Part shown: positions 1,030 to 62,250 of the stretch, piece after piece | Position numbering within the stretch: the first letter of the stretch is position 1 | How the letters are laid out: each line of letters begins with the position of its first letter | NCBI GenBank assembly: GCA_977862235.1 | Contig: OZ374557.1 | Span: 2,604,001-2,668,000, forward strand | Reading direction: 5' to 3' | Length of the DNA stretch: 64,000 nt | Origin: Dudresnaya verticillata | Lineage: Eukaryota | Position numbers and translations under genes: made by a program | The notes under the pieces: generated by a model | Seen by the model: only the letters and a program-made list of their open reading frames with translations | Databases searched by the model: none | What the model was told of the DNA's origin: nothing

Positions 1030-3284
1030 TTAACGCATGAGCGATGCGAACATGGGATCCTTCGTGACGTCGCCGCCCGGCTCGGTGTCATCCCTCGCAT
1101 CCTCACCACTAAGGCCCGGAGCAGACGTCGTCGCTTCAGGCGCGGCCACGGGTTGACCAGACGGGGAAGCCCCCGGAGCAGCCTCCATTGGCTCATGCGG
1201 CGCAGTAGCGCCCATATTACCCGGAGCCGACTCCATATCCGTAGCACCCGCCTCGCCATCTGGCGTAGGCTGGCTTGCCACCGGGGCGGCCTCAGACGCG
1301 CGGGGCACTCCCGTCCCTGCTCCCGCGCTACTGCGAACCGCAGTGCTAGGACAGAGCGGGGAAGCCGCGAGGATTGCCTGGAGTCGCTTCCGTATCTCTC
1401 TCTCTGACAGGTTTAGTCCGAGGGCCACCCCCGACCGACGCAAGAAGTCAGACATGGCGATACGCGTCGGGTCAGGGGCGGACGTGGCAGACGCTCTTTC
1501 GGGGCGAGTAATGGCATCCGATGACGGTGCGACCGGGTGGGCATCATGTGGACCAGGCGTCACCTCCGCATATGCGACCAGCTGGGTCTGGGCATTCCTA
1601 ACGGGGCGGGCAGACCAAGCTCCAGCACACAACTCGCGTTGGGCGCGGGAACGCGGCCCGTTCAAGTCCGCATAAGATGCGAATGGCGCTGCAACGTCTT
1701 CCATGTCGTGGATACCCACGTTCACCTCGGAGCAATCTCCGCCTTCAGTGTTGACGCCCTGCTCCAGGGCGTCGTAAAGGTACCCACAGGGATGATCCGC
1801 CGGCATCGGCACGGGGTTATGGCGGTCATACCGAGCCTCCTCCTCGCTAACCAATTGGCGCCACCACGGGTCGTACCAAACAAAGTCCCCACATTGGGGA
1901 TGGCGACGACCCGGAGAAACGTTCCTCCGCAGGTTAGTGAGTTTGTTGTTGGCAAGCGGTACGACTGTGGGATCATCCTAGTTGAGGGAGTCATGCAACT
2001 GCAGCAGTCTGCGAAGTTCATCATCGTTTGCTTGCCCACCAAGGATGTTCCGCAAGTCTAACTGAGCGATTAACGACGTCATCGTCGGGGTCAAAAACCA
2101 GAGGCGTAATGTGTCGTACGTTTCCCAGAGCCAGTGCATGGCGGTCTTCGCAACGAACTCAGTGAAAGGAACCACCCATAGCCCCGTACTCGGGTCGCGA
2201 CGGAACTCGCTCATACAATAGCCAAAGTCGTTGGGTAGTTCAATGAGGAAGCCCTCGCATCACGCGACCAGGGCCCAAGTGTAGGGAATACCCACGTAGT
2301 ATCGTCTACGGTATGTCATGCAGAAGAGGGCCGCCTCGACGTGGGGATACGGAACAAAGATTCCAAGGCGCGAACGCTCGCGACGCTCGAAGCGGATCTT
2401 CTCCCAAAACAGGTTACTGCGCTTACACAAATACCGGAACTCATTCCGTAGTTGCACATCAAGCAACAGAGCAGACTGCTCAACCCGCGGCTCGCGTCCG
2501 CGCCAGGAGGGTGGTAGTCTAAATAGGCAAGGCACCACACATAGTCGACCTCACCGTTCGTGCGGTACACCGCGTAGTCGACGCCGTAGTCCAGCGGGAT
2601 GAGGCCGCGCCCTACGGTGCGCGTATGGCGCCAATAGACGAAGCGAACCCACTCGCGAAAAACCGCGTCTAAAGGACGGTGCCGGCCGTTGACATGATGT
2701 ACGGGGGCAGCCCCGTGGAGACGCCAATCTTCTGTCCACAACACGGAGACGGGGATTTCCCCGGGTAGGTAACCATTGAGGACGTACCTCGAGATTATGC
2801 CCATCTCCTTATAATCGCGTGGGTGGAACCACGGGGCCCTGGCGAACAAGTCAAGATCGTTGTTCGGCATCAGGCCCACGAACGCCGCCGGTCTGGGATA
2901 CTCGATGGCCGGCGGAGCTGGCGCGGCGAGTACAGGGGCGAGCTCCGGGGGTATTGTTGAGGCGGGTGGCAACTCCGAGGTAATCCTCGCTTCGTAGGAC
3001 GACGCTGACGGCAACGGTGACGGCATGGGGGCCGACGCACGGACGCTTGGCGAAGGCGCCATAAGCGAAGCCGACGACGGTGAACCCACAACGGACGACA
3101 ACCGCGGCACGGCCGGCAGATCTGTCGCCAAGAGCTCCGTAGCCAGCGGGTGTTGCGTCCCAGGGGAAGGCCATACACGAGTGGGAGACGTCACCGTGGT
3201 CGGCGTGTTTGGTTGAATCTCGGAGAAATCCTCCTCATCGGCCATAGGGTTGGACGTCGGAGGCGGCGGTTGGTTGTGGCTCAT
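1030..3284 (-). pseudogene. aORF1: antisense accessory ORF of E1, ~750 aa reconstructed, unknown function
   Basis: ORF 3284-2316 frameshifts near 2540 into the frame shared by 2538-2260, 2214-1978 and 1854-1030 (two internal stops). Pro/Ser-rich N-terminus, aromatic-rich core, low-complexity C-terminus. Motifs are shared with aORF2. Confidence 0.8.
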
Positions 3285-3572
3285 GATACGCCAGGAAGCA
3301 GACGCCAGGGCACGGGCACGGATGACGAGCCAACAAGTAGACCTTTATTTCCCCGGTGATGACACAGCAGTGTGCACGCGCGCGCTCGTGTCACAAGATG
3401 GAGGCGTTCGGAGTGTGGGGTACCGCGAAAAGCAACAGGAGTCGCCAAGCAGGGCGGCGGGGCTGTTCGCAAACACAAAGACCGGAGGCGACTCCGCACA
3501 CAAGTTGGAAAGCTGGGAACAGCGTGAAGCAGCCACACAGACACACGGGGTCCGCTCTTAGGAGGGGGGCGA

Positions 3573-4413
3573 TGTGGTGCAAAGGCCCGGGGAGTACCCC
3601 ATTTTATATCGCTTTCGCGCTGACGCCCGCGTGTATCGGTCAGCACTCGCCGACGAACGCGGGTGAACCGTGATGAGCGCATACGCCGGCATACGACGCG
3701 ACGGGCAGACCCCCGAGCCGGCATCGCACGTGCGAGATCGCGCCAATGGACGTCGAGCCCTTGGCACGGCGCGTGCGCCGGCGCGACATGCGCCACCGCC
3801 GCACACGCGGGACACTAGCCCACGTGTACACACGTGCGCCACATATATCCGAGGGAGTCCTCGACCGGGTGCGCGCCAGCAATGCGCACCCTTAGATTAC
3901 ACTGATGTACAGTGCGGTAGTAGTATTTCTACGCTAGGTATTTTTGCACGATATTTTAGTGAGCTCGCGGTGCGCGCGCATGCCAAGTGTCAAGCGCACG
4001 GCGCCACACACGCGCGCGCACCTCCCGCGGGGGATACTTAGTGTACGGGGTGAACCCCCCTCACAGTAAAGCGCCAAGCTGGCTTTGGGACCTGAGGATT
4101 CCCCAACTTCGCTCCCGGTGACAACACCGTGTGTGACCTCGGCCTATGTACCCTGTTCCGTTGCTTGTCTTCGCGGTATTCACCGGCGCAACTGCCTTTG
4201 TCGTTTTACGTGCGCTACAGCACTTCTACGTGGGCCGGGGGTTTACAGTCGACCCCGTCCACGTCTCAACCATCCGGGGCACACCCCGTGCCTCGTCTGC
4301 TCTACGCAATCTACCGACACCCGCCTCATCGCGTGGTGTCTGCTACCACCCTCGCCGGAGACCGCTCGAACACGGTTAGGGGTAATCCCCGGCTGTTGGG
4401 GTGTTGCACCACA
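3573..4413 (+). repeat. 3' LTR of E1 (841 bp)
   Basis: Termini TGTGGTGCAA...TTGCACCACA; preceded by the PPT; interrupts the end of the E2 pol ORF. Confidence 0.9.
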
Positions 4414-12953: not shown

Positions 12954-15900
12954 AGAGGGGGAACCGGTTTCGGTTGACCCAATTACTCAGGTTGCGCCGG
13001 AACCCCCCGATCGATTCGCTGAACGCAGCTCCACTAGCACAAGCTTCCACGGCTTCTCCACGGATCGACCGGTTTCACATGAGGATGTTGCTTCTCCTAA
13101 GAAGATCTTAACCCGCCCATGGGCCTACCCCGTGGGTGTACGTATGATGAGTATTGTAAGGACTCAGTCTGTTCCCTGTCGCGCTACAACTATAAAGTTG
13201 CTGCGTCCGTCAGGACTTCTGTGGACAAACGCACTCGAGTACGATCCGCATTGGATTCAGAGGCTAGCCCTAATCTGATCCCGGCGGAAGTTCTTTCTCC
13301 GGAAGAAAAGAAGCGCATCTCGACAAACAGGTCGATCGTCAACTTGACGTCTGCGTCAAGTCATAGACTAACTACCCTTGGGACCATATCGCTGGTTGTA
13401 CGCGTGGGCTCATACACGGTTCGACAACCTTTTGTTGTCTTCAAAGTATTGGCAGTCGACGCCATTCTTGGATGCACGTTTATCGATACCCACGTCCAGG
13501 GTTTACGTGTTCGGAAATAAAACATCGTTCTCCACGACGGGTCGATACAGCCTATCCTAAGGCGCCGCTGCGGCATACCCCATGAGGGATCCCTCACGGA
13601 AGCAATGGATGTCCCACCCTTACCTAACTCGCGACTACTAAGCGTTGCTGAACGCACCAACTTACCGCCGGGCAGTGAAACATGGGTTGCCGTGACCTGC
13701 TCGGCCCAAGGAACGCACTTTCTAGAATATTTTCCTCGGTTATACGACCTCCAACACGTGGCCGTGACCAACGGTATAGTCGACCTACAATCGAATCGGC
13801 TCTTCCACGTGAAGGTTGCGAACTTCGCGCCGCGCATGCAGCAGCTTCAGAAGAATCAAAGCCTCGGAAAGGCTGTCCCGGCACCCACCCGGACACCAGT
13901 GTACGCTATTTCCATCGAGGAATCTGATCCTGGCCGCAACCTTGACATCTCCGTGTCCAGTTCGCAACCGGACACATTCCCTGATGTGGGGGGCGGGACT
14001 CGCTGCATCTCTTAGTAGCGAAGGCTCACAGACTGAAATTAAACCCGCGACGTCTACGCCGTCTCCCATGTCAGTCGATGACCTGGCGTTGGAGCACTTG
14101 TCCGACACGGATCGTCGTCGATGCGAACAATGCTCCGACCGTTCGGTGATATGTGGGACGGCCAGCTTGGAACAATCAAGGTGACCAAGCTCCGAATTGG
14201 ACTACAAGAAGGTTCCAAACCTGTATTCTCGCAACCGTATCGGTCGGGTCCGAAAGCTAGACAAGTCTAACAAGACGAAGTAGACAAGATGCTTAAAGAA
14301 GGCCTCATAGAGCCTGCTCGCACGAAGTTCGCAAGCCCCGTAGTGCTGGTCAAGAAACCCGATGGGTCACTACGTTTCTGCGTCCACTACCGCAAGCTGA
14401 ACGCTATCACAGTGAAGGATACATATCCTCTCCCGCGGATGGACGAGTGTCTGGACGCGCTGGGAAACGCCCAATACTTTACAACCTTGGATTGTAATTC
14501 CGGGTGTTGGCAAATTCCAGTCGAGGAAGAAGACAAGCACAAGACGGCTTTCACTTGCCATGCCGGATGTTTCCAGTTTTCCAGGATGCCCTTCGAGGTT
14601 TGTAACGCTCCCGCGACCTTTCAACGTACGGTTGATATCCTACTCTCCGGATTCAGGTGGAAAACCTGTTTAGTCTATTTGGACGACATCATTATATTCT
14701 CGACGACTGTCGACGAACACCTCAAACACGTGAAGGACATTCTAGAAGTACTGCAAGAAGCAGGGGTTTCGCTGAAACAAAAGAAGTGCAACTTCTTCAC
14801 GAAGAGCGTTGACTACTTAGGGCACGTGATCCGTCCAGGATTGCTAGAAGTGGCAACCAAGAATACCCAAGCCGTTGAAGGTTTAAGGAGCCGAAGACGC
14901 AAACCCAGTTACGGTAGTTTATTGGAATATGTAATGTGTACAGCGCTTCGTGCCTAACTTCGCGCATGTGGCAGCCCCACTCAGCGCACTCCTACAAAAG
15001 GATCAGGGCTTTGAGTTGCCAACGTTTGACAAACGTCAGCGTGAAGCGTTTGAACTACTCAAGAAAGCGTTAGTCGCTCCGCCGATACTCCAGCTCCCTC
15101 AAGAATTTAAGGCTCTCTCCGTTGACACGGCCGCCTGTGACTACCAAATCGGGTGCGCATTGATGCAGATGGAGGGAGATGGCACCCGACATACCATAGG
15201 GTTTTGGAGCCGCGGCCTAACGAAGGCGGAAAAGAACTACTCGGTAGGCCAGAAAGAATTCTTCGCAGTGGTCTGGGCAACGGAGATGCTTCGTCCGTAT
15301 TTGGAACGGTCCCAATTCGATCTGTATACGGATCACCAAGCTATAAAATGGATGATGAGCATGACCGATGCTTCTGGGAGGCTGGCCCGCTGGAGCCTAC
15401 GCCTGTTGGAATATGATTTACGATACAATACCGAAAAGGAAAGAAGAATCAGATCGCTGGTGCCGTCTCTCGGCTGCCAACTTACGGCTTCACCCAGTGG
15501 GAACCTGATCTCTAGATCCCCTGTTTTGTAATCGAAGACGGTCGAAGGGACGCCCGCGACGAACTGTCGCCAGCGCGGAACCGACCAACGCGTGCGCAAC
15601 CCCAACCCTTAGAGGTTTGGGAAGTCGCACCCGAGAACGACGATCTTTCGGGTGACGACCAGCTAATATCATAGGTGGCTGACAAGGCATCTAGCCAGAA
15701 GGGTCTATCTCTGATAACGGTGGAGGCGTTACTCTGATAACAGAAGTCCGACAATGTCTGTATGTGCGTCCGACGGAACCTCGAGACGGGTAAGCCCGGT
15801 TGTTATATCGAGGATAAGAGAGGAAACCTCGTGTGCAAGTCATATGTGGACCACGCGCTACAGGTACTCGTACCTAGATCGCTGAAAGAAAAGGTTCCAC

Positions 15901-17521
15901 ACCTAGCGCACTACCCGGAGTTGGCCGGAGACCCTCGGGGAACCAGGATGTATCATAACCTTAGGCGACAGGTATATTGGCCTGCGATGTCTCTCGACGT
16001 GTATGCGATAGTAAGGAATTGCGTCAAGTGCGCCCAAGAGCACGTCCAGCTTCGAAAACATACTTCCCATATGAAGTTATTCCCGGCAACGCTGCCCTTG
16101 GAATTCATAGGGCTCGACATCCTCGGGTCCCTGCCCCGTTCAAGCAAAGGAAATGCGTTCCTCCTAGTCATGACTGACAGATTCTCCGAGCGCACGCGAG
16201 CGATACAATTGGAGACAGTGACAGCCTACACGGTGGACAAGGCGTTCTGTGAGCATTGGGTTTTCATACACGATCCACCCCGTTACGTCCTTTCGGACAA
16301 TGGCTCGCAATTCGCGTCCACGTTCTTCCTCGCGGTGTGCGACATCCTTCGAATTAGGAATATGTTTACATTAACCTATCATCCGCAGACGAACGGTCAG
16401 ACAGAACGATTCAATCGTACCCTCTTAGTGGGTCTGCGACACTTCATCGCTGAAGACCAGAAGAACTGGGACGAGTTTTCCTCTGCGTTAACGTAGGCAT
16501 ATAACACTACTGTACATCGTGCTACGGGCCTGATGCCCTTCGATCAGGTGTTATCTAACCCCCGAAATACATCTTAATGGAACAAGCAGAAACAGTGGAC
16601 GTCGACCACGTGCAGGCGACTAAAGTTAAGAAGCGGCTGACTCCACGCTTAGAAAATGTGATGGATACGGCCTTACCGCGGATGAAGTTAGCGCAACGGT
16701 GCTATGAAACGAATTTCAATAATCGGATTCGACTAGCTAACCAGAAAGCGAGACCCAGGTCTTGGGTGTTCCTGGAAAGGGAGACTAAGGTGAAGGACGC
16801 TTTAGGCGTGGCCCGCGAAGGGAAGCTATTCTCAAGGCCCCTGGGCCGTATAAGGTGCTGGAACGTGGAACGCACGTCGTCATGTTAAACATCAAAGGTA
16901 GCCGAGAGACGATGTCTCTGGACCGCGTGACCTTGCCCCCCTCACCGCATGAAGAACCTGGCGCACAGGGTCAAGAACCTTCAGTATTGGACCTCTCGCC
17001 ACAAGTAAGCAGCTCTTCCCCAATCGCCACCGACGTGGATCCTAATACCCCCGAGTGGGATTCATAACCCAACTGAGGGTTCAATACCACCGAATGGGCG
17101 TGGGGAGAACGCAAATGCGGACGCAGGTCCTCACAGCTCCACGGAATGGGGAATTACCGATATTACGGTTAATACGCCTCTCGCGGTGCCGCCTAGCAAT
17201 GAAACACCAACACGAGCCCCACAAGAGACAGTGATGGCACCACCTAATTCGGATATCGATCCTAGAAATATTGATTCAGATCTCACGGCAACGGCGCCTG
17301 CGGAACGCTCTCCCTCACGGAGGTTCTCTCGTTTCAAGAAGGCGCCGCCGCGCGAGCGCGTTTACGATCGCATTGTGTCTTATGAAGTCGATCGACGCCT
17401 CTACCGCATTCGGTGGTTTCAGCTCCCAGCATCCGAAGATACCTGGGAGCCCAAGGAAACTCTTCCTCATAACTTGGGAGCAAGGTATCATCGAGTCAAA
17501 GGGATTTCCCTCCCCAAATAG
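12954..17521 (+). pseudogene. pol: E3 pol (PR-RT-RH-INT-chromodomain)
   Basis: ORF pieces 13119-13520, 13605-14015, 14289-14957, 14950-15531, 15762-16496, 16577-17067, 17186-17521 carrying canonical motifs. Confidence 0.93.
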
Positions 17522-18875
17522 GCGTCTTACGCTGGTGCATCGCTCAAGGGGAGCAAATTCGCCGAGAAGAGGCTAGTCGAACCCTGCGGATCTGGGCACC
17601 TGTTGCGAATAAGCGTCTATCGCGGCTCCCCTACTGCGTAGGGCGACCACTTCGCGCAACGATAGTAATAACAAAACGGCTGATGAGCCTATGTATAGCA
17701 ATGTGGAATGGGAATGGTCATTCCCCCTTTTCAATCTGTTGAGCTGGATGATATTGGCATGGATGGATGAATCTGGAAGCGTCAAGACTCTGGAAGTAGA
17801 TAGATGTAATAAGAAGAATCAAGATTCTGGATAGATGTGGAAAGGAATAGATGGATCAAGAATCGAGATTCTGGATGGAAGAGATGTACATACGTTGAAG
17901 ATACATATGTGAATAGAGGAAAACCCTGGAAATGGGTTGTACTAATAAGAGGGAGAATCAAGGTTCTATGCCAAGAAGCGCGGCTGTCACAGCCCAACCT
18001 AGCAGCACCCTCCGGCGATACCGGTGCTTTGACAGGGGGAATACCCCCTGATGGTGACCCTGTCTTAGGGCAACGGAGGATAATAACACACCGCTTAAGG
18101 CTCGGCAGCGAGGCCATCGCCTAACCATTGATGAGCCTTGATTACGGCTGAAAACGCGCTTCGCGTCAGCATATTACTCCAGCCGAAGGGCTATGAAGGA
18201 AAGACGGCATCCTCAAGGTGTCCCGCCAGGAGTCGGAGACCCCCGCGGCTGGTAAAGCCTTTCGTCTCAGTCCAATCTTCGACAGGATGGAAGAGATAAC
18301 GGGCGCGTGGGACGCATGCGTCTCAGCGTGACGCCAATGGGATGGCTATCCAGCAATGTAGACGGCATTGGCGCCAAAAACCTCTACAGTGTGTCATCTC
18401 GCTGTTGTAGAGAGAAGGGTCAGCCGCTGATAGGCCCTCGTAGCCTGGGAGGCGTAATGAGATACTCCATGAGGGCGCGCCAATTAGACGCAGGATGGAG
18501 CAAGTACAGTGTTCCCGACGCTACTGTGAACCAGCGTCGCCACCCCACTGACCTTATGCCGCATTGCTGGCACCCTCTCACTCCACGAGTGGCACCATGG
18601 AGGCGGACGGATCACCCAATGAGGGGTTGTCCCCCGGGGCGTGGTGATAACACCGTCGCGTGGGGTGAGGTTCCCTCCTGCCACTACGCTGGCACTGCAC
18701 AAGGCGATGAACTTCCGCCAAGTTCCCGACGGGATAGGGCGTAGTCGCCAGGTCGCACAACGCCGCCGCGTACGCCTTCCAAAGGCAAGAGAGTCAAGCA
18801 TACAAGACGAATTTATTTACAGGGCCAGCCGCTCATAAGTCTAAGGCCATAGGCCTGGGGCTAGCGCGCGACGCG

Positions 18876-21166
18876 CTAGTCAGAAAGTAGGTCAATGAAC
18901 TCGTTCTCCTCGAGCGGAGGATTGGGACCAGACGGTGCTCGAGTCGTCGTGACACGACGCACTTCGCGCACTAATCTATCCCCACGCCCACGACGAGGGC
19001 CACGACCGAGAAGAGCGCCGAGGCCATCGTGAGCCGCGCTAACACGGTCCGACGCTTGGCCCTAGATATCCATGGGTGAGCCCTTGTGATTATCATCGAC
19101 CCCATGGGTTCTATCTCATCCTCTTCCTTGAGAGTAGCTTCGTCTTCACGATGACTTCACAGGTCTCCTGACCCAACGCCGATGCCTGGGTAACGACCCC
19201 TGCAGGTGTGGCGTCGCCATCCCTCGCCTCAAAAGTATTAAGCGGAGGCCTGTGATCCGGACCGCTCCCAGCCACGGAAGGCGTCGTGGTTGTCGGAAGC
19301 CGAGGGTCAACACCCGATGAGATCTTACGCGAGATCCCCGCCTGGTCGTGATCAGCCAGTGATCCTCCTCTGGGGCCGCGGTATAAGTCGCTCCAGAAGG
19401 CCCCGCTAAAGCCGATGCAGAAGCCATGGGCTGCTGTGGCTCAGGCTGACGACTCGGTTGAGTGGGAATCTCAAGGTGATCCTCGCGTGTAATCTTACCG
19501 GCATCAGCCTCAGTGGCTTCCCGGGCATCGAGCCCTAAGTTGACACCAATCGCCCCTTGGGCTCCGGCAGCTGGGCGCTGTGGGTGACCAAGCCCCTTAC
19601 GGCTCTTCTTGCCGACTCCACCTGTTGGGTTTTCGGCTTCTGCAGCTTTAACACCACCCAAAGGTGGTAACGCCTGAAGACGCGCCCGAAGGTGGGCTTG
19701 CTCCACGGGACCCGGAGTCTCCATCAAATGCGCCTCGTACTCGGCTAAGACATCTTCGACCCATTCGGCCAGACTCGTCAAGTTGAGGTTATGAAAGTTC
19801 CAATGCACCGCCAATCGGAAGGCCAAACCTCGGCGGTTAAACACGTCGCGGCTTTCCGCATCTGCGCAATATTGGTGAGCCACTGAAGGCCCTTACGGAC
19901 CTTGTGGTTGGCCGTCGACAGTGTCGTCGAACGGCGGCACCTCTTCGAGGCTAGACGGGCCTTGATCGCGCCATTTCACGCCTATCCAATCGCGGGTGTA
20001 GCCATTCCGGCGTTCGCCTTCATCTAAGGCAATGGACCCTCCCTCGGCGGGAAGCTGGGCTAACATGAAGTCTGGTAAGACTGGTTGCCATTTATCTGGG
20101 TCGAACTTCACCCAATCACCCCGATAAAAGACGGCCGTGATGTGCCCCGTATTCTCGGGTAAGAAGCGGTTGCGCTTAGTCACTCGACTCCATCGAATAC
20201 GATCCACGAAGGAAAGGATGGCATCGAGATCGGCGGCATCTTCCGCTGTGGCGGTAAAGGCAGACGAGCGGAGGGACCGAATACAAGCCCGAAGGGGCAT
20301 TCCGATGAAGTATAGAAAGCCCGGACGGGCTTCATACAAGAAAACGTGTGTGACCATCACGACCCACTCGTGCGGGAATATCGTCCAGAGTAGGGACTCG
20401 GCGTAAGCCACATTCATCATCTCCAGACCAAGATACGCCACGATTGTAGGCGTGCCCACGGGCATCGAGTACGAGACCTCCAAAACAGCTGGTCGTCAGG
20501 CACTTGAGGATACTTGATCCGATAAAACTCCGGACGGATGGAGGTCACCTCCTGGCAATGGGCCGGAATGAAGCAGCCAGCACGATGGCGGTGACGGCGC
20601 TCGAAGCGCACTAGATCTGACGGCATGGCCGTTTGAGGGTTGCCCAGGGCATACTTAAAGTTTGAAGTCTCGTCCCAGCAGACAACCCTCGGCATCGTGT
20701 ACGGGTAGTTGTACCTTCCTTGAAGAATGAACGGCCGTTGGTGGCACATGATCCAGAGGTCGAAAATTGCAGAGCTATGGATTCTGTGGACTTCCTCGAT
20801 CCGGAAGTTGATGAGCCTCGCCAAGGCTGAAATGTAAGGGATCTCATGGCGAAAACGCGGATGAGCGAGATCCCACTTCCAAGGGTCTTCAATGGTAGTC
20901 AACACCCGGTTGAGCCCCGTGAGGAGAACAAGATGGTGACGACCGTGCGCATGCCACGTGCTGCGCTGAGCATGTCTTGCGCCGCGACGGCGGATCCCGC
21001 TGTGATCGGCTCCCGCGTTGGCCTTGATCTGGGCAAGGTCTGTGCGCACACGCCAGTCGCCGCTATTCTTGATTGTGATCGGCACTCCTGCTTCGTCCAT
21101 TTCAAAGCCGAGAAATCCAACGCTCGAATTGGCGCTTCCAAAAAACATCTGCTGGTTCGCACTCAT
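18876..21166 (-). pseudogene. aORF2: antisense accessory ORF of E3, ~760 aa reconstructed, unknown function
   Basis: ATG at 21166 (MSANQQ); ORFs 21223-20417, 20483-19893 and 19883-19146 join by one frameshift and one stop; 3' end near 18876 is tentative. Homologous motifs to aORF1. Confidence 0.8.
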
Positions 21167-22432
21167 GATTGAGTTCTTGGAAGAATAAGCCACGTCGAGG
21201 CACGTTGAAAACACTTGAGCCACAACAGTAGAGGCGAAGGGCCTTAACGAGAAGGTTGCGAAGACCTCCGGGCCTAGGTCGGATTACGGCGACGGTCAGC
21301 CAGAAAGCCACGGGCCAAACGCCGCGACACGTGACGGTCAGACAACCGGGGCCAAAGAGAAAGCGCAAAAGCGCGGATGACGGTGGCGTTGCAACGCTCT
21401 GGCACACATAGGCACCCGGCACAGAAAGACGATGCGGTTTCGAGAAAAATGAGCCACACTAGACGAAGATGACGGAGCTGGGCGTTGAGGTGCGCTGTGC
21501 CGAGATGGACGAGAAGGTCTACTGGGAACGCGCCGAATAGCGCTTGAAATAATCAGCCGTTCGAGGCTTTCGCGCGAAAACGATACTGGATGCCCGTCGA
21601 GACGGGACACCGAAGTCGGATGGGCGTACGATGATTTGTCGCCACGCGGACGTCGCGAGACGGGCGTTTTGGTGGCGGTTACACCTGCCCTCAACGGGCC
21701 GTTTGGGACGTCCACTGCGCGTCCACCCCAACCGGGCCAATGGAAACTTGCTGGCTTCGCGGGTCTCTCAGCTTTAGAGAGGGGGCCGTGTGGTACAATG
21801 AGCCGCCAGGGACTGTAAGCACGTACACGTGTTTTGCGCCTGTAATGCTCCGGTAATATTGCGCTTGGCATGCGCCTGTAAGGCGCCGCACGTACGGACG
21901 CGCTGTAAGGCCCAATGCATTGCTGGCCACTCTGTATGGCATTGCTGGGAACAGCACGACACCAATGGGATGGCTGGCCATGATTGGCTGATTTATCATG
22001 GCCTTCCGCGCAGGAGCGCGCCCGAGTCATGAGCACATTACGTGCGCAGGATGGAGTACGATCGCTCACTACCTCATTGTAACTATTAACGATAACTACG
22101 ATAGCTTAGAATATGAATAGCGGCGAAGGCGCTTTCGGCCTTCGCCATATTGTCATCCCGTCTATTTCTGAATCACCGCGGTAATTTGGATTAGAATGGT
22201 AGCTATTTTTTGCTAACATTGACCAGAAATGGTGGCCGAACCGCACAAACATTTGAAAAGCTCCGCAACCATTAGCGCACGAGCCATTTCGATCGCACCA
22301 TTGCACTTTGGGCGGCAACGTCCATTCAAAAACGGGCAGGCTTCACCCTGCGACACACGCAGACACCCACAGCACCGTCCCAACTTGCGTGGCCTACTTT
22401 CCTTTCCAAACGGTAGCCTTTAACCCTCCCGT

Positions 22433-38303: not shown

Positions 38304-39077
38304 TGTAGTATAGCTGTCAGCACGCTAGTAGCAGCAGCTGTAAGGTATGCTGGCAGCGCCGCACTTCAATGGTGCACACGATGACGCCCGCTGGCGAGTC
38401 GTGGTTGGGCAGCGTGCCCTTAGTTTTTTCGTTGATTTAGTAGCGGTCGACCGCATTGCTGCCGGAAGCGGCCGCGCGCCGTGCCACACACGGCGCGCCC
38501 CTGTGACGCTCTCCGGCGCTGAGCCGTTGAGAGGGCCGCTGCCCGTTACGCCCCGCGTGCGCCCACGGGTAACCGTTACCCCGACGTGTCGACACGTGTA
38601 TGGGCGCGCGCTCGCACACCTCCCGCGTTGGTGTTGTGGGGCGCATGTACTGTAGAAGTAGTCGTAGTGCACATAGTGTAGGGTATTTAAGACCGTCGGC
38701 CATCGACGGCTCAGTAAACCGGGCAAGCAACAGCTCGTGCTGAAGCTTGCCCCCAGCCTTTCCGGGTTCGATCCCTTTGCCTTACGCGAGCGGGCGGTTT
38801 CCCTTTTTCCCCTTGCCCCGCTAGCCTTTCCCCTTTCCTTTTCCTTTCCGTCGGCTTCGTGCCGCCCTTCGACAGGGACGCTGGGACCCGGCCGCTGCCT
38901 ACCCGCGTACGGTACGCCCCGTGCGCGCTCCGGCATCGACGCCATCGATCCGCACCTGCGGAGCGCACGCGGCCGACACTGCTCTACCAACCCCAACAGC
39001 TACCCATCGACGGGTCTGTGTGGCGGCTTCGGACCAGCAAGTATCAGATGTCGGATCGACCCGACGTCTATACTACA
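38304..39077 (+). repeat. E5 5' LTR
   Basis: TGTAGTATAG...CTATACTACA; direct repeat of 48467-49240. Confidence 0.97.
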
Positions 39078-39144
39078 CTGGTCTCCCGACCTATAAGTCG
39101 TCGAGACCCAAATACTTCTCGCATCGACGCGATCGAAGTAAAGG

Positions 39145-44300: not shown

Positions 44301-45925
44301 CAGCGAAGAGCCACCGGGGCTTGCCGACGACGAAGCCTGGGACGAATGCGAGGACGTCGACCTCTTCGACCTTGGCCGCATCGACGCGAGCCAAGAGCCG
44401 ACGGACCTCACCCAGGTCGAACCGGTGAAGTTCCTTTCACCAATAACCGTCGAGGAATTGGTGGATGCGCAGCGGCGCGATTCTTCTTGCCAAACAGTGT
44501 TGGCACGGCAGTCCCGTCGACAGCATAGCCACTTCTTCGAGGACGAGGATGGGCTCTTGTGCCGGCGTCACCCCGTCATCTCCTCTTTGGAGCGAATAGT
44601 GGAGCCCGAAGCGCTACAGCCGTGGCTTCTCACGCTCGCGCACCACTCCTCCTGGCTGGCCACCCTGGCCAGAACAGGATGTTCTACACGCTCCGCGAGA
44701 GCTACTACTGGCCACACATGTCAGCGGACATAGCCATGACAGTTCGGAACTGTCGGCACTGTGCCAGGAACCGCATACGCTTGCGGAGGTCCCTTCATCA
44801 GTTGAAGTTGTTCCCGGCCACGAGGCCGCTCGAGTCGCTCGCGATCGATATCCTAGGGCCGCTGCCCAAGACGAAGTCAGGAAAGCGATTCCTGCTCGTC
44901 ATGACGGATCGATTCACGAAGCTGACTCAAGTAGCGCCGCTTCGCACCATCACGGCGTACCACGTCGCAGTGGCGTTCTGTGAGAGGTGATTCTTCCACT
45001 ATGGACCACCAAGGTCTCTGTTGTTCGACAACGGGAAGCAATTCACCTCTAAGTTCTTTCAGGTAGTGTACCGCTACCTGCGCCTGAACAACATGTTCAC
45101 GTCCGCCTACCACCCGCAGGCGAACGGTCAGGTTGAGCGCTGCAACCGGACCGTCATAGCCATGTTGAGGAATTACATCAACGATCACCAGGACGACTGG
45201 GATCGATACGCAGCGGCGTTGACGTATTCCTACAACTGCCATGTCCATCGCACGACGCGGACGACACCCTTCAGCCTCGTGCTGTCCCGGCCGCCGCGGA
45301 GTTCACTAAGTTTCAGAAGGCAGCGACCAGACCGAAACCTTGTGAGGACGTGCGCGCCGACTTTCTCAAGCGGCTCGACGCCGCCTTCGCAAGCGCATCG
45401 AGCGCTCTCGACAAAACGCAGCGGCGTGACAAGAAAGACTTTTACAAGCGTGTCAGAAAAGTCAACGCCCGCATTCGAGCGGGAGACTACGTCTTCATCG
45501 ATGCGAGCGACGGGGTTAAGAAATCCAAGAAGCTCCAGAGCACAGCGATAGGGCCCTACCGCGTGCTGCTTAACGACAAGCGCACGCTGTTTATCGACAG
45601 AGGCTGCTTGGTCGAACGCATCGCAGCGGACCGCGCCGTCTACTGTCCCCAGCCGCTGCGGGAGGATACTGCGCAGCGCAGCGCATACTTACCTACCACT
45701 GAGGAACTCGTGTCCAAAGCCGTCGACGACCCGCGGTTAGATAAGGTCCTTGACCACGGCACGACCGACGATGACACGCTCGTGTTCAAGGTGAAGTGGA
45801 CCGGCTATCGCACGCCGACGTGGGAGCCACGTTCCCATCTCCCCGAGGAGATGGTGAGCCACTACTTCGGATCGCAGCGGCGGCGAAACACCAACCGGCT
45901 CGAAGCCGTTCGCTCCTCCTCATAA
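41378..45925 (+). pseudogene. pol: E5 pol (PR-RT-RH-INT-chromodomain), -1 frame relative to gag
   Basis: 829-aa ORF with VDTGSG, LRFCVDYRRLN, YLDDV, YTDAS; integrase HPGQ..C..C, YHPQANGQVER; chromodomain FKVKWTGY..PTWEP. Confidence 0.95.
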
Positions 45926-47431
45926 CCCCTCGGCGGAGGCGCCTCGCACTTGAGGAGGGGGCCGTAGGCATTCGTTGCCTTTTTTCGAAGGCAATCGATG
46001 CCTCACCCTACCCTGCACTGGGCACCGAGCCCAGACAAGTCACCCTTGCGCCAGCGGCAGCGGCAGCAGCGCAAGAGGGGGCAGCAGAACGCTGATTCCG
46101 GCGCATTGACGCGCACAGGGCGGCTGCCAGCAAACCAAGCCAGGGGCAGCGGCCCCGGGTGGTCACAAGCATTCGCTAGTGGCGATGAGACACAGCCGCT
46201 ACCTCGCCTTCGCGCGTGACAGGCGTCGACACCTCACGCACGCCAGGTAAGGGGCGCTAACCAGCGGCTACCGAAGCCGCTAACCGGCGCCGCGCATGCG
46301 GCGCTGCCTTCTCTCACGCCAGTGCAACCCAACGCGCCAGCCGCAGCGGCTGCTGAGCGAGGAGGGGTCACACCAGCGTGAGTGCAGAGCGGGCGCGTCG
46401 ACGCGCCCAAGGCCGTCGCTATCGAAGCGAAGCGGTGTGGGGAAAAGGGCGGCGGCCCGATCGCCATCTCACCCGGGTGCACCGAAGTGCGGTTGCACTC
46501 GATGTGCAACGGCACCCCAAAAGCGTGCGTCACTTTTGGCGTGCGTCCCGGCGCGGGTCACACGCGGCGCATCGAGCGCGAAAAGGGTTGCGGCTACAGT
46601 AAGTACTGTAGCGGGGGGTTGGGAAACACGCAACGAGGCCAGCGGGCCGGAAGGCAACAGCCAATGCAAGGGGTTGCGAAAAATCCCCAGCCAACGATTG
46701 GCTATAATTTGGGCGCAAACCGCCTCCCGGCGGGAGCAACAGCAGCGGCTGATCGAGTAGCTAGAAGCGGCGCGCAGCCGTCACGTGGGTGCGAGGCAGC
46801 GGCCTCGCCGAAGCTAGCCGCAGTGGCACCAGGCGCCCAAGACGGGCGCGCAAGGGCAACCACTGTGGCCTCCCCCATGCAAAGGCGACATGCCGCGCAG
46901 CAGCGCTGGGGAGCCACATGGGATCGGCACGCTTGCCCATTGCACCTGACCAGCGGCTCACGCAAGCCCCGCGTCGAGACGACCGCTGTCGTAGCGCAGT
47001 GGCGATGCGCGCGGGCTCGACGCGGGCGCGCGCAGCACTCACCGTGGGCAGCGGCCCGATGTGGTGAGCTGCTGCGCTGGCGAACGCTTTCGCCAAAAGA
47101 AGTTCGCATCGACGCGGGCCGAAGCCATATCCCACCCCTTTCCCTTTTAACATGTCTATAGACGCAGCGGCGTAACTGGACTAAAAGGCGCAGCGGCGCT
47201 CTAATCGCTGGGTGCCGCGGCGCCCACGAACTCTATGCGTCGATCGCATTATTGGGCAGCGTTGCCCCCGGCCCCCGCTTCCGGCTGAGCAGTCGTCGAC
47301 GACGCAAAGCCAGGGGCGGAGGGGTCATAGCCGGTCACCTCGGCCGCAGCGCGGGGCTGAGTTGGCGCAGCAGCGCCCACCGCGGTACCCAACGCGTGGT
47401 ACACCGCTGCGGCGCCAGCGGCAGCGGCTGT

Positions 47432-47940
47432 TTACCCGGCGGGGCTCACTTGCCCCACTGGGGGACCATAATCCTGCGAAAAGTAGCCCAGGGGGACGGG
47501 CGCAGCGGCGCCCGGCTGCTGTGGGACTCCATCTCCCTGCACCACCATCGACGGGGTGTAGCCGGAGGGTCCCCATGGGAGCATATGGCCAGCGGGCCCG
47601 GCGGCATAAGGCAGCATCGGTTGCTGCGCAGCCTGCGCTGGCGCATACGACGGCATCGGCTGCTGCGTCGGCGCCAGCGTTGGGTGCGGCTGATACTCCT
47701 CTCGTGGCCGCTTGCCGAGGGATAAAACGACTGGGGACGAGCGGGCAGCGCGCCTCAGCTCCCCCTGCAGTCGTTGCGCATCGTGTGCAAACCCATCCTG
47801 CTCGTTGCGGTAGCGGAAGGCGATGGCGTTCGCAGCGGCGAGGTCGTCATGAGTCTCCGCTAGAAGCGTCGCAAAGGCTGTAACAAGAGTGCGCAGCGGC
47901 GCGTCCTCACCGAGTTTCAATACCGCAGCGGCTGAATTAA
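47432..47940 (-). pseudogene. aORF remnant of E5 (C-terminal coiled-coil and Pro/Gln tail only)
   Basis: DDLAAANAIAFRYRNEQDGFAHDAQRLQGELRR...KRPREEYQP aligns with aORF3 EDVNASNAVAV*YRDERDGFAREVQRLRGEVQR...KRLREEYQP. Confidence 0.8.
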
Positions 47941-48466
47941 TTGCGAAGGTGCACTTCCTACTCCGGCAGTGGAAGGGTACCTGACGACGGAATGCCGCGG
48001 CGTCAGGCGCGTCGAGCGCCGTGTGTGTCGCAAGGAGCGTGCGCGTCGAGCGCCGCGGATTACAGTGCACCGCGTGTACACGGGCGCGTCGAGCGCCGTG
48101 TGCGTGGCATTGCGCGTGCGCGTCGAGCGCCGCGGAATATAGGGCACTCACGCAAACAGGCGAATCTAGCATTGTGCGCACGCGGGCGTGCGTGCGCCTC
48201 GTGCGCTACGCATCGAGATCACGGCAGCGGCCGATATCGGGCGGGAAAACTCGGCGCAGAAATTGCACGGCTAATCGCATGGCCCGTGCGTTTCGTGCGC
48301 CGAGCTCGCGCACGCGTACGCACCTTTCAAATTTGGGCAGCGAAGCCCGTTGTGCGCATCGAGCGCCACGTGCGCCTCCAGCACCGCGCGCGCGCACCGT
48401 GCATCCCTTTTGACTTGGGAAACCTCAACGGCCGTGAGCGGGGCGCTCACGCTTGAGGGGGGGCCG

Positions 48467-49240
48467 TGTAGTATAGCTGTCAGCACACTATCAGCAGCGG
48501 CTGTAAGGTATGCTGGCAGCGCCGCACTTCAATGGTGCACACGATGACGCCCGCTGGCGAGTCGTGGTTGGGCAGCGTTCCCTTATTTTTTTCGTTGATT
48601 TAGTAGCGATCGACCGCATTGCTGCCGGAAGCTGCCGCGCGCCGTGCCGCACACGGCGCGCCCCTGTGACGCTCTCCGGCGTCGAACCGTTGAGAGGGCC
48701 GCAGCCCGTTACGCCCCGCGTGCGCCCACGGGTAACCGTTACCCGGACGTGTCGACACGTGTATGGGCGCGCGCTCGCACACCTCCCGCGTTGGTGTTGT
48801 GGGGCGCATGTACTGTAGAAGTAGTCGTAGTGCACATAGTGTAGGGTATTTAAGACCGTCGGCCATCGACGGCTCAGTAAACCGGGCAAGCAACAGCTCG
48901 TGCTGAAGCTTTCCCCCAGCCTTTCCGGGTTCGATCCCTTTGCCTTACGCGAGCGGGCGGTTTCCCTTTTTCCCCTTGCCTCGCTAGGCTTTCCCCTTTC
49001 CTTTTCCTTTCCGTCAGCTTCGTGCTGCCCTTCGACAGGGACTCTGGGATCCGGCCGCTGCCTACCCGCGTACGGTACCCGCCGTGCGCGCTCCGGCATC
49101 GACGCCGTCGATCCGCACCTGCGGGGCGCACGCGGCCGACACCGCTCTACCAACCCCAACAGCTACCCATCGACGGGTCTGTGTGGCGGCTTCGGACCAG
49201 CAAGTATCAGATGTCGAATCGACCCGACGTCTATACTACA
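48467..49240 (+). repeat. E5 3' LTR
   Basis: Follows the PPT; followed by TSD AATAC. Confidence 0.97.
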
Positions 49241-58281: not shown

Positions 58282-59116
58282 TGTGGCATAGACGTCAGGT
58301 CGAACTGACGTCTAGCTGCGCTGGTCGATCAGTCAAACCCAGACCCGTCGAAGGGTCGTAGCTGTGGTGGTAGAGCGGGGGTGTCGGCCGCGCGCGCCGT
58401 CGACGGTCGCGGATCAACGGCGTCGAAGCCTGAGCGCGCACGGGGCGTACCGTACGCGGGCGGCAGCGGCCGGATCCCTGCGTCCCCGTCGTGGGGCGGC
58501 ACGAAGCCGACGGTAGGGAAAGGAAAAGGAAAGCCTAGACGGCTAGGGAAAGAGGGAAGCCGTAGAGCGAAGGACTGGGAAAGAAACCCAAAGCAGAAAG
58601 GGCAAGCCTGGCGTAGGCTGCCTTGCCTGGTTTACTCAAGCCCAGAGGGGCGACTACTAGATATACTACAGGGCCTGCGGCGGCACCAACCCGGGAGGTG
58701 CGCCAGCGCGCCCCAACACGCGTCGACGCGTACGGGTAACGGCAACCCGGGGGCGCGCGTGGGCGAAACGGTCCACACGTACTCAACGGCTCGACGCCGG
58801 AGTGCGCGCGCGCGTGTCACGCACTCAACGGCTCTACGCCGGAGTGCGTGCGCGCCGCGCGCAGGACAGCAGGGCGTTCGACCGCCGCTTACACTTAGAC
58901 AGTGCTGTACACTACAAAACAATAAACGTAGAAATTACATGGGAGTTTCAGTGTCACACGTGTACGCGTGCGCGCTGGCGCCATTGCGCACTTCCTTACA
59001 GTTCAGCGGGGCTTCGGCGCCACCGGCTGACAGCGCGCGCACAGCAGTGCACACGTGGCGCAGCTGGTCTTACAGCTGCGCGTGTGTGGCACAGCTGGTC
59101 TTACAGCTATGCCACA
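58282..59116 (-). repeat. E7 3' LTR (835 bp)
   Basis: TGTGGCATAG...CTATGCCACA; U5 half resembles the E5 LTR. Confidence 0.9.
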
Positions 59117-59450
59117 CAACCCCCCCTCAAGCGCGAACGCCTCGGTCGCGACCGTTACGACGCGCACGCTGTGGGGTGGCCAAGGCGGCGCCCGGGATTG
59201 GCCAGCGGGCCCCCGGACTTCCGTCGGTGACGGGCGTCGATGCCACGTCGGGTGTGCCCGCGCTGAGCCGCGACGGGCTATTTAGAGAGCCGCCTCTGCG
59301 GCTCCGAGGGGTGGGGGTGGTCCGGTCATCGCTCACCACGACCACCAACACTCCCTCCCCCACGCGTACGGCTGCCTGTAGACCAGTGCCATACGCTCCA
59401 AGCTTTCGACGCTCTCAACCTCCTCCCCCATCGCCAGCGTCGACGCGGCC

Positions 59451-62250
59451 ATGGAGTCACGCGAACCGATCGCGGACGGCGCCCCCGCCGAGGGGGCGCC
59501 GGTTACCAAGCCCACCTCCTCGACGGAGTCAGTGGTAGGGGGTGGGCCTGCCGAGCCGGTGCCAAAGGCGCCGGCGGGCGGGGAGGCGCGGCCTTCGACG
59601 GCCGCGCCAACCGCAGAGCGACCTTCGACGGTCGCTACAGAAGAGGCGCAACCTTCGACGGTTGCGCCAGAAGAAGCGCCCCCATCGACGGGTGCGCTGG
59701 GCAAGGCCGGGCCTGCTCCGGTGCCGCCTTCTTCCGCCGGGGCGGGTGGCGTCGAGACCAACCCCACCCCAACGCCCGCCGCTGACGTCTGGTCAGAGGC
59801 GGTGGACCTTGCTGCGGCGCAGGGCAAGAGAGTGAAGGACCCGAGTGGGGCGGCCTCTGCCGCCCCGCGCCCAGTAGCGGCGGCTCGGGTCTTTCAGCCG
59901 ACTGGCCCGCCTCGCGCAGGGCCTACGGCTCACAGCAATCAAACCGCGTCGACGCGAGGAGGGGCACCCGCAGAGCAGCCTTCGCGCTCCGCGGTGCCGA
60001 TGGTGGCGAGGGTGCTCGACCTGAGTCGGTCGAGGTCGCCCACACCATCCGGGTCGGGGAGAGTCCCCGCAGCGGCGGCACCCTTCGTGCCGCGCGATTC
60101 TGCTGGCATGGGGCCGTCGATGGCCCCGACACCGTCTCCCGTGGCCTCTGCCAACGCAGAGGGGAAGGGCGCGGGCGTGGGTGAGTCCACCGCTGCGCCC
60201 GTCGTGCCTCTTGTTGGGGTGTCGGTCTCAGTCGGACCGCCCCTCATGGGCCAGGCGCCCCCTGGACCGCACGCGCCCCCGACCGAGACGGTCTTCGCGT
60301 GGGGGGCGCCGCGCCACCAGATCCCGCTGGATCAGTGGCGCGGGCTGCAGGAGCCTCGGGCAGATGTCCGGCGGCTCCTGAGGGTGGCCCACGCAAGCGT
60401 GGACGGAGGGGCGGCAGCCTATGCCGTTTTCCTCCCGGCGGACGCCATAGTCTGGCTCACGCCGTTGGGGTTACCCTGCGACGTTTCTTACGTCGCCTCC
60501 CTTGAGGAGCTTCGGCGGGTGGACAGGGCAGCTAATGCCCTCTTCCTGACACCCGCCCATGAGTGGGCCCCGCCCCTGCCTGCCACCATCCCAGAGATGC
60601 GCACGGTGCCCGTCGACGAGCCCGTGGATCTCGCGCACCGTCTGCCCGATGCCGACTCTGCGCGCCGTCTCTTTGGGGTGTGCTTCGGGGAGCGGGACTG
60701 GAATGTGTGCAAGGCCCCGGGCGAAGGACGCCCGTCAAAGGGGTGCAAGTTGCACCCGGCGCTCGACGCGGCCTGGTTCCCATCGGCGGAGTGGTACTCC
60801 CACCATGATACGCCATCGGGATTCACTATCCCGTGGATAACCGTAGACCGGTATTTCCACTACGCGACAGTCGGTCGCGTAGCTGCTCGTCGTGAGCTCC
60901 TTGCTAGGCGCTCAGATGAGTACGCCTTCGAGGTGGGCCGCCGCTACTGCAGCGAGCTCCTCGCGAAGGGGACAGGCTGGGTCTTCGACGACCGCCTGAT
61001 CAATTTCCTCGCGACCGGCTGGTCAAGCGAGAGGCCGTGTTTCCGGACTTGCTCCGTCCTTCGGATGGCAAGTCGTTTGGGTTCGGCGAGCTGCTCGGCG
61101 TAGTCCGCCGAGTGGCAGCGGCAACCGAGAAGCACACGCGGAGGCGTCACTTCTCTTCACGCGTCGAAGCGTTCGTGTGTGGCTTCTTGCTAGAGACAGG
61201 GCCCTCTATAAGATCCAGCGCAATCGGGGCATGCGCGACCGACGGGAGCGCGTCGAGCGCTCCGGGTTCGCCTCGATGGCCGACATGGCCCGCGCTGAGC
61301 GCGCCGGACGTCGCCGTCGTGGCGTGGGTGCTAACCCTGGGTCAGACGCGGCCGTCATGGCGGCGGAGACCGAGTCGTACATCCCGCCGTCCCCAAGGGC
61401 ATCCGCGCATCGTGCGCCCGCCGCCCCTGCGGCAGTTGGAGGACCGTCTGCCGCGGAGCCGTCGACGGCCCGCGCCCCTCCGGCCGCTGCCGTTGATGTG
61501 TAACAGCCCCCGCCGGCCCCGTCTGGGCCGCCGGTGGTGGCCTATGTCCCACCCCCTCCAGTGGTCGACCCACTGGACGAGGCAGTGAGTGCGGCAGTCT
61601 GGGCCGATCCGACTGTACGCAGCGCGGCCTCCTTGGCGCGCGTCGGGCAAGGCGTATCGACACGCACGCTCCTGCAGGCCCTGGAATCGAGCGCAGTGGT
61701 GCTGCAGGAGGACGTCAACGCCTCCAATGCCGTCGCGGTTTGATACCGCGACGAGCGGGACGGCTTCGCCCGCGAGGTGCAGAGGCTCCGCGGGGAAGTC
61801 CAGCGCATGTCTTATGCGCCGGCGCGCAAAAGGCTGCGCGAGGAGTACCAGCCGCCCCCGACGGGGTATGCGTCGATGCAGCCGATGCAGTCGTACGCTC
61901 CGGGCCCGTCTGGCCCGGTTGCCCCTTGGCCAGGCGCCGGGCAACTGATGTACCCAGGCGCTCAGGACGACGCAGACGCGCCGCCCAGTGCTGCAGGCGT
62001 CGTGCCACAGCAAGCGGTTCTTCCGCAAGTGAGGGTCCCGTCGATGGACCCCTACCGCCCTGCGGCTCCCATAGGTGGAGGCGCAGTGGCGTACGGAGGC
62101 TCGGCGCCTCCGCTTCACGCCGGGGGTCTGCCACCAGCGCCAGCGGCAACCACAACTGTGGTTGAGGGCAACATGCCCGCGGCGCCGGGGGCAGCGGGCT
62201 CTGCGCCCGCTTTTCCCGGCGTGGGTCCTGGCGGCGAGGCCGCCCAATAG
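59451..62250 (+). pseudogene. aORF3: antisense accessory ORF of E7, ~930 aa reconstructed, unknown function
   Basis: 550-aa ORF 59451-61103 continues via frameshifts (~61037, ~61177) and two stops (61501, 61741) to 62250. Pro/Ala-rich N-terminus, aromatic-rich core, coiled coil, Pro/Gln/Tyr tail. Confidence 0.82.

Follow-up and report, generated by a model that had tools for sequence, protein, structure and literature searches.

We report support, from sequence comparison, for an old, conserved and unannotated antisense accessory gene in Gypsy elements. Within the window (the whole 64-kb stretch of DNA analysed, from Dudresnaya verticillata), the elements E1 and E3 carry divergent members of one protein family just inside the 3' LTR and antisense to the element, while a third element, E7, holds in the same position what appears by profile comparison to be a different gene. 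The first-pass annotation had proposed an old, selected accessory gene common to all three elements. Of this proposal, a conserved antisense gene stands, with 356 protein clusters, intact members in red algae and no match to a described domain, but the ORF of E7 has to be set apart as an unrelated gene.

Antisense reading frames and their elements

The features considered here are, along the window:

1030..3284 (-): aORF1 of E1, 748 aa, family member; start at 3284; broken by a frameshift near 2525 and 2 stops
~2906-1740: conserved core of aORF1
3560..3572 (+): PPT of E1, upstream of the 3' LTR
3573..4413 (+): 3' LTR of E1, with a perfect 10-bp terminal inverted repeat
13101..17522 (+): pol of E3, broken; RT, RNase H, integrase and chromodomain (Pfam)
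19146..21166 (-): aORF2 of E3, 672 aa, a divergent member of the family; start at 21166; broken by a frameshift near 20497 and 1 stop
~21088-20080: core of aORF2
21776..21788 (+): PPT of E3
21789..22250 (+): start of the 3' LTR of E3; a DDE_1 transposase follows from 22257
38304..49240 (+): element E5, complete, with gag, pol and chromodomain; a relative of E7
47249..47944 (-): remnant homologue of the aORF3 tail in E5, ending at the same stop position
58282..59116 (-): 3' LTR of E7, 81% identical to the E5 LTR over 515 bp
59117-59128: PPT of E7, adjoining its 3' LTR
59451..62250 (+): aORF3 of E7, 931 aa, outside the aORF1/aORF2 family; broken by 2 frameshifts, near 61040 and 61180, and 2 stops
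63700..64000 (-): pol end of E7 with chromodomain (PF00385, E 2.7e-6)

The orientation of E7 is fixed by its pol end and chromodomain, while that of E1 is read only from PPT and LTR because the E1 pol lies outside the window. The end 10-mers of the E1 3' LTR are identical to those of the E6 LTR at 49598-50510, and the pol end of E2, on the opposite strand, adjoins the E1 LTR. The LTR pair of E5 is 96.5% identical and flanked by the TSD AATAC. The 3' end of the E3 3' LTR was not found; since E3 has no LTR pair within the 64 kb, the link between its pol and aORF2 is one of adjacency and orientation. The RTs of E3, E5 and E6 are mutually 56-65% identical and chromodomains (PF00385) were detected by Pfam in E3, E5 and E7, so that E3, E5, E6 and E7 represent families of one chromodomain-bearing group, not Gypsy lineages distant from one another.

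The three antisense ORFs are real. Read with an X placed at every break (2-4 per ORF), as in the lengths listed above, aORF1, aORF2 and aORF3 have longest stop-free runs of 342, 288 and 573 codons, each matched by none of 200 shuffles. Codon-usage z-scores were 3.2-7.0 in ORF segments vs 0.2-3.5 in 19 stretches outside the ORFs; with a z of 3.2, the initial half of aORF2 lies within the range of these controls. An aromatic-rich core is followed by a tail rich in P, A, S and G, which bears out the low-complexity tail described initially. Three long antisense ORFs near the 3' LTR were likewise recovered, their ATGs lying ~290, ~620 and ~335 bp (aORF1, aORF2 and aORF3) inward of PPT and LTR start; aORF2, however, extends for ~2.0 kb from its ATG and thus falls below the claimed 2.3-2.8 kb. 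As to the motifs quoted as collinear, 11 of 12 are found at the expected place and strand, but EAFVWLL of aORF3 spans a frameshift and is no contiguous peptide. Besides, while the motif positions of aORF1 and aORF2 are truly homologous, those of aORF3 lie outside that family.

The aORF1/aORF2 family and a separate gene in E7 and E5

By sequence similarity, aORF1 and aORF2 are members of a single family. Its 356 protein clusters were retrieved at E<=0.001 by full HMMER searching from the core of aORF1, 141 of them at E<=1e-10. Against a family profile built without any window sequence, aORF1 scored 402 bits and aORF2 102.8 bits (maximum of 200 shuffles, 3.1), and HHalign connected aORF2 with the family at 99.3% over 299 columns. 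By itself, the pairwise comparison is too weak a basis for linking the two sequences: they share 19% identity over 283 columns, and their score of 58 was also attained in 1 of 1000 shuffles of the core and in 53 of 500 local ones. In trees, aORF2 did not group next to aORF1 and had a very long branch (61/63 rows; quick tree, 30/61 rows). A word-seeded protein search had returned no match for aORF1, a false negative given the later HMMER result; with the family alignment as query, the word-seeded tool retrieved 5 proteins only.

The family core comprises ~390 residues, with a median identity of 30.5%. Among the 57 long hits (401-893 aa), 55 start with Met, which together with these lengths and the common core argues that the core has been kept by selection. 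Intact members exist in Gracilariopsis chorda (BWQ96_10156, BWQ96_00829, BWQ96_09918 and BWQ96_02238), where four copies on four contigs are 98-99.5% identical, as expected at the sequence level of a recently amplified element. Two further named members come from Agarophyton chilense; an organism name was attached to 3 of the 30 clusters looked up. Some "hypothetical proteins" in Gracilariales annotations (e.g. PXF40140.1, CAN8068179.1) are probably transposon genes.

Trp, Tyr, Arg, Glu, Asp, Gly and Pro make up most of the near-invariant residues. Conservation of at least 80% is seen in 17 columns of polar or charged character, which include seven acidic residues and four Arg. Arg accounts for 6-12% of the core, whose net charge has a median of about -1 (range -28 to +30). 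The family alignment contains no conserved Cys/His column and no N-terminal hydrophobic stretch, and a strong hydrophobic window (>1.9) occurs in 2 of 57 members, indicating neither an Env protein nor a zinc finger; an Env-like ORF was rejected also for the antisense, rather than sense, direction of the gene. NLS-like motifs were not enriched (20 of 57 members vs a shuffled mean of 13.9 and maximum of 24), with none in aORF1. A C-terminal two-helix motif, present in 23 of 62 tails (15 of those being seeds), had no significant match in the PDB.

The retrotransposon context of the gene was seen only in the window, with pol beside the gene in E3, and PPT and LTR alone in E1. Searches of viral and metagenome contigs yielded no locus context for homologues. 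The genome-contig search gave a single match, a family member with which a contig of a bacterial MAG ends; GC content passes from ~54% to ~70% where the two parts meet, and the assembly is most likely chimeric.

aORF3, as far as its sequence tells, is a gene unrelated to aORF1 and aORF2 that occupies the same element position. It scored -12.5 and -4.3 bits against the aORF1-family profile, under the shuffle maxima, and remained inside the range of 1000-fold shuffles with all four family sub-profiles; HHalign gave 0.24%, aORF3 entering this comparison without a profile of its own. The idea of one family for all three ORFs therefore holds for aORF1 and aORF2, but not for aORF3. A by-eye register of aORF3 on the middle motifs of the family was rejected, its score being within those of shuffles. 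The word-seeded protein search found no match for aORF3, a blank that says little because that of aORF1 by the same search was a false negative. The remnant in E5 has neither the aORF3 core nor its start, and the distance from PPT to tail is 511 bp in E5 vs 2487 bp in E7. For the shared tail, a dN/dS of 0.28 (bootstrap 0.15-0.45) points to purifying selection. The presence of an unrelated gene at this site points to a slot whose content can be replaced and which is under selection. We regard it as unlikely, though conceivable, that this extends to an exchangeable antisense slot in red-algal chromodomain Gypsy elements, filled by at least two unrelated protein families, the larger of which would have a new fold and be a family-specific anti-silencing factor, an LTR-retrotransposon counterpart of VANC that would have helped inflate seaweed genomes.

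Fold and possible function of the domain

Neither the window ORFs nor 57-59 family members had a significant Pfam match; PHROGs and NCBIfam gave one marginal match each among 59 members, the PDB sequence profile search matches to tails only (E 0.1 or worse), and the ESM Atlas no usable match. The AlphaFold model of the core (394 residues; pLDDT 95.9, pTM 0.94) had no Foldseek match in PDB or BFVD at E<=0.001, and a best Z of 2.2 with VIA (rmsd 3.4, 48 aligned); for the 71-residue core end alone, there was no Foldseek match and none at Z>=2. For a predicted structure searched as the whole 394-residue model and as this 71-residue end, an absent fold match is no proof of a new fold. The methyl-CpG-binding domain PF01429 was hit by 1 of 59 members (E 0.0039, below the curated cut-off) and 1 of 38 segments; there was no MBD among the PDB hits of the last-70-residue segment profile, and the last ~70 core residues of the model form a hairpin and a helix, without the three-stranded sheet of an MBD. 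No described domain was thus matched significantly in Pfam, NCBIfam, PHROG or PDB, nor by Foldseek against PDB and BFVD. A literature search that included accessions and locus tags, with Repbase, Dfam and most subscription papers outside its reach, found no description of the family.

Our best guess for the function is a nucleic-acid-binding regulator of the element. Tentatively, and with somewhat less than even confidence, we propose that the antisense gene of E1 and E3 encodes a conserved ~390-residue domain that likely binds element DNA or RNA and likely helps to keep the element expressed and mobile. Just inside the 3' LTR, these Gypsy elements carry a separate antisense gene, encoding in E1 and E3 an unnamed globular domain predicted to fold as one compact, mostly helical unit. 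The gene may be driven by an antisense promoter of its own, located within the 3' LTR or next to it, like gene23 of maize Grande, which is nuclear and has its own antisense promoter (PMC7264820). The protein would be soluble and act in trans on copies belonging to its family, with the low-complexity tail and the short C-terminal two-helix motif possibly contacting partners; the window copies are dead, and the gene would be dispensable in cis. Of note, the domain TRP28 of Retand is predicted to bind DNA (PMC11963269).

An Arg- and aromatic-rich core without NLS enrichment would also suit a helper that works in the cytoplasm at the RNA or particle stage and, like retroviral Rev or viral silencing suppressors, serves RNA export, packaging or protection from small-RNA silencing, and TE-associated small RNAs are reported for G. 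chorda (PMC8566409). Yet, the core lacks an RNA-binding match by fold or sequence, and those antisense proteins that have been localised are found in the nucleus (PMC7264820); we consider such a helper unlikely, if worth bearing in mind. The conserved acidic and Arg columns might instead belong to an enzyme of undescribed fold whose target is DNA, chromatin or some protein of host defence, and enzyme accessory genes are described for red-algal DNA transposons (bioRxiv 10.1101/2025.02.11.637652). Metal-binding Cys/His and a catalytic fold match are absent, however, and conserved acid-base pairs may be structural, making an enzyme a rather improbable reading.

That the gene restrains its own element, be it by means of the protein or of an antisense RNA that pairs with genomic RNA, strikes us as quite improbable: the antisense orientation would yield a genome-complementary RNA (discussed in PMC7264820) and the E5 family spread in the window though E5 is without most of aORF3, but an RNA-only role leaves the conserved 390-residue domain unexplained, and the loss from E5 may have occurred at any time. 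Similarly slim is the chance of a general mobile cargo picked up by Gypsy elements (e.g. PAG1 of red-algal Plavaka/Mutator transposons, or an unknown virus gene), most homologues then residing outside LTR elements. No domain has been detected in PAG1, and transfer of PAG genes from one TE family to another is described (bioRxiv 10.1101/2025.02.11.637652); moreover, both E5 and E7 have a PPT-like copy directly 3' of their pol stop, which suggests a 3' module added to an older end. On the other hand, two very divergent members in one 64-kb window share the antisense position beside PPT and LTR, and neither predicted viral structures nor PHROGs gave a match.

What antisense extra genes do in Gypsy elements is a long-standing question, for which the evidence has come almost exclusively from flowering plants. 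The present family makes it testable in a distant lineage, as it offers a deep alignment, a structure predicted with confidence, specified invariant residues and, in a red alga whose genome is sequenced, natural copies that are intact. Besides, a 390-residue domain without sequence or fold match is structurally interesting in itself.

Relation to known antisense and accessory genes

Additional ORFs that lie antisense between pol and the 3' LTR (aORF-3R) are described for maize Grande (gene23), rice RIRE2, Silene Retand (TRP28/PF04195) and bean PvRetro13 (PMC7264820; PMC11963269). The same placement follows here from pol orientation together with PPT/LTR for E3, E5 and E7, and from PPT/LTR only for E1; conservation at the protein level is seen in the 356-cluster family and in the dN/dS of ~0.3 between aORF3 and E5. 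Likeness to the Retand/Grande type covers position, orientation, obscure origin and function, and a long pol-to-LTR region (2.9-6.6 kb in Retand vs 4.3 and 4.6 kb here). Retand, however, is a non-chromovirus lineage of flowering plants, whereas E3, E5 and E7 bear chromodomains, and the domain found here is another, unnamed one: single-sequence scans for TRP28 hit none of 59 members at E<=10.

Outside land plants, an antisense extra gene of a Gypsy element is known from brtn of Boty/BcGypsy1 in Botrytis cinerea (PMC7264820; bioRxiv 10.1101/2021.04.13.439636), although this host is a fungus and the likeness is one of description. The VANC anti-silencing proteins of VANDAL transposons and MAIN/the plant mobile domain are a candidate parallel in function, as factors that an element encodes and that act on the family of this element, but they belong to DNA transposons of dicots (PMC13547354), and no plant-mobile-domain Pfam match occurred among 59 family members. 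PAG1-3 of red-algal Plavaka are likewise red-algal TE accessory genes, PAG1 also being without a detected domain; they stem from DNA transposons, however, and PAG1, compared by its description only, may or may not be of the same family (bioRxiv 10.1101/2025.02.11.637652). Antisense ORFs at such a position are already known from Retand, Grande and Boty, and what is new here is the domain.

Antisense genes within nested Gypsy elements

The window consists of nested Ty3/Gypsy elements surrounding two host-like genes, one of them encoding a sigma-70 factor. Three elements (E1, E3 and E7) carry, just inward of their 3' LTR, an open reading frame (ORF) antisense to the element: aORF1, aORF2 and aORF3, respectively. 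The features, including polypurine tracts (PPTs), are as follows:

E1: 3' end only in the window; aORF1 3284 to 1030, minus strand; PPT at 3560; LTR 3573-4413, with a perfect 10-bp inverted repeat at its ends
E2: 4326-9649, minus strand; distant-clade Gypsy element; solo E5-family LTR inserted at 7926-8697
E2 pol: 4326-7602, minus strand; part of E2, hence of a different, divergent element from E1, on the far side of the E1 LTR
E3: pol on the plus strand, chromodomain end at 17522; aORF2 21166 to 19146, minus strand; PPT at 21776; LTR start 21789
E5: 38304-49240; complete relative of E7; LTRs 96.5% identical; target-site duplication AATAC
E7: minus strand; chromodomain at ~63800; aORF3 59451 to 62250, plus strand; PPT; LTR 59116-58282

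The three antisense ORFs are genes. Their stop-free runs were each longer than in any of 200 shuffles, the antisense frame had the top codon log-odds among six frames in all ORF segments (merely tied in the aORF2 tail), and codon-usage z ranged from 3.2 to 7.0 in ORF segments versus 0.2-3.5 in 19 non-ORF controls. E5 retains just the tail of the aORF3 gene. Over 204 codons, this remnant and the corresponding tail of aORF3 differ by dN 0.54 and dS 1.92, a ratio of 0.28 (bootstrap 0.15-0.45; 928 of 1000 replicates usable) that the protein-guided alignment biases low. Both copies have a stop at the identical position. In a DNA-guided control, the ORF frame had 35 synonymous single-change codons where 23.7 were expected, and no other of the six frames showed so large an excess; for the reverse frame with common wobble positions the figures were 29 versus 20.4, yet that frame contains 11 stops.

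The pol-to-LTR distances are 4267, 4584 and 2542 bp. An extra PPT-like sequence follows the pol stop, besides the true PPT, in E5 (45940-45965), E7 (63640-63670) and, more weakly, E3 (17540-17555); an older form of the element may have ended there and gained the accessory region afterwards. For E3, the window yielded neither the 3' end of the LTR nor its 5' counterpart, so that E3 pol and aORF2 are linked by adjacency only. An E5-family LTR-end fragment (10244-10430, 84-87% identical) lies immediately upstream of E3 gag, lacking a primer-binding site, with E3's own 5' LTR absent. An identical primer-binding site is found 3' of the E4, E5 and E6 5' LTRs (32765, 39079 and 50513). The E2 RT is 25-28% identical to those of E3, E5 and E6.

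The motif CTGTAAG occurs 24 times in the window versus 5.2 expected (0/100 shuffles had as many), at 8657, 21813-21909, 24809-24954, 31120-31238, 38338, 48501, 49868-50000 and 58995-59106. It clusters in the 5' halves of the otherwise unlike LTRs of E3, E5, E6 and E7, with none in the E1 LTR, and is a candidate cis-element common to several LTRs.

As to the remaining sequence, the intact sigma-70 gene (28742-29920, minus strand), whose product probably serves the plastid polymerase, is convergent with a 556-codon frame (26775-28445, plus strand) of gene-like codon use and without a Pfam match. Just upstream of the sigma-factor gene, the stretch 30598-31580 has a PPT and then, from 30609, a sequence resembling the start of an LTR, for which no matching LTR end was found. 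Within a DDE_1 (Pogo-like) transposase region, a 338-bp inverted copy (23650-23987 versus 25150-25487) is 100% identical; it may have arisen very recently, or it is an artefact of the assembly. One more copy, 86% identical, lies at 31614-31951. Four telomere-like 8-mers (AACCCCTA) at 34912-34943, directly at the end of the truncated E4 gag, suggest an old healed break.

A conserved family in E1 and E3

The first-pass annotation had placed all three ORFs in one family; this held for E1 and E3, which indeed share an accessory domain family that is conserved and carries no annotation, but not for E7. Pairwise comparison was marginal for aORF1/aORF2 and found no similarity for aORF3. Unseeded phmmer, queried with a 290-residue stretch of aORF1, retrieved 356 clusters at E<=0.001 from 1.84 billion representatives. 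Against the family profile, built from the 57 hits of at least 400 aa and free of sequence from the window, aORF1 gave 402 bits and aORF2 gave 102.8 bits (E 5e-33), the only two places matched in six frames of the window; none of 200 aORF2 shuffles exceeded 3.1 bits, and HHalign of aORF2 against the family gave 99.3% over 299 columns. Still, aORF2 is strongly divergent (19% identity to aORF1), keeping 17/37 near-invariant columns, with gaps at several others.

By contrast, aORF3 scored -12.5 and -4.3 bits against the family profile, less than the best of its shuffles, did no better than shuffled sequence against four family sub-profiles, and reached 0.24% in HHalign, where its side lacked a profile of its own. 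Compared thus as a single sequence, any homology to the family would be very remote, and E7 and E5 are best read as carrying an unrelated gene under selection. Accordingly, the proposed collinear motifs are real between aORF1 and aORF2, whereas their extension to aORF3 is unsupported; 11/12 quoted motifs were found, EAFVWLL bridging a frameshift.

The 57 long members (401-893 aa, Met start in 55/57) comprise an N-terminal extension that varies among them, a core of ~390 residues (median identity 30.5%, range 17-67%, 1540 pairs) and a low-complexity tail. A short two-helix motif ends 23/62 tails, 15 of the 23 having been seeds. Among 30 clusters looked up, the three named ones are all from red algae, the others deriving from ENA, Logan, JGI or NCBI assemblies. 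Together with the sigma factor, which amid Gypsy elements indicates a plastid-bearing eukaryote, this makes a red alga the probable host of the window. Agarophyton chilense has two members, annotated as 'unnamed protein products', and a Gracilariopsis chorda cluster comprises four hypothetical proteins that are 98-99.5% identical and encoded on four different contigs; such near-identical multicopy genes are compatible with a transposon, while falling short of proving an LTR context. For homologue context, a single locus was retrieved. There, a member (1-1860) at the end of an Acidobacteriota MAG contig abuts an NRPS gene, and GC content changes sharply at the junction; the contig is probably a chimera in which algal-type repeat DNA was wrongly assembled with bacterial sequence.

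Possible function and known counterparts

Family members had no significant match in Pfam, NCBIfam, PHROG or PDB sequences. An AlphaFold2 model of the core (126-sequence input; pLDDT 95.9, pTM 0.94) consists mainly of helices and ordered loops. Because of the Arg/aromatic conservation, the layout of folded core plus tail, and the precedent of the plant antisense-ORF products Grande gene23, a nuclear protein expressed from an antisense promoter of its own (PMC7264820), and Retand TRP28, a predicted DNA binder (PMC11963269), we tentatively propose, at somewhat below even odds, a soluble protein that would act in trans, bind the element's nucleic acid and thereby promote the element's activity. 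Against this proposal stand the near-neutral core charge and the lack of NLS enrichment in the family. The protein may instead help at the RNA stage, be a novel enzyme, control copy number or be general cargo. Antisense orientation and hydrophobicity exclude Env, and the absence of conserved Cys/His excludes a zinc finger. A methyl-CpG-binding match (PF01429; one member, E 0.0039) was near chance over 59 scans, and follow-up gave no support.

Our literature search found no report of such antisense ORFs in red algae, nor of these proteins, which the supplements of bioRxiv 10.1101/2025.02.11.637652 or Repbase could contain. The architecture itself is not new, since antisense ORFs between pol and the 3' LTR are a known class. 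Accessory genes of red-algal DNA transposons are described in that preprint (bioRxiv 10.1101/2025.02.11.637652), among them PAG1 of Plavaka transposons, which, as presented there, is likewise red-algal and domain-less but belongs to DNA transposons.
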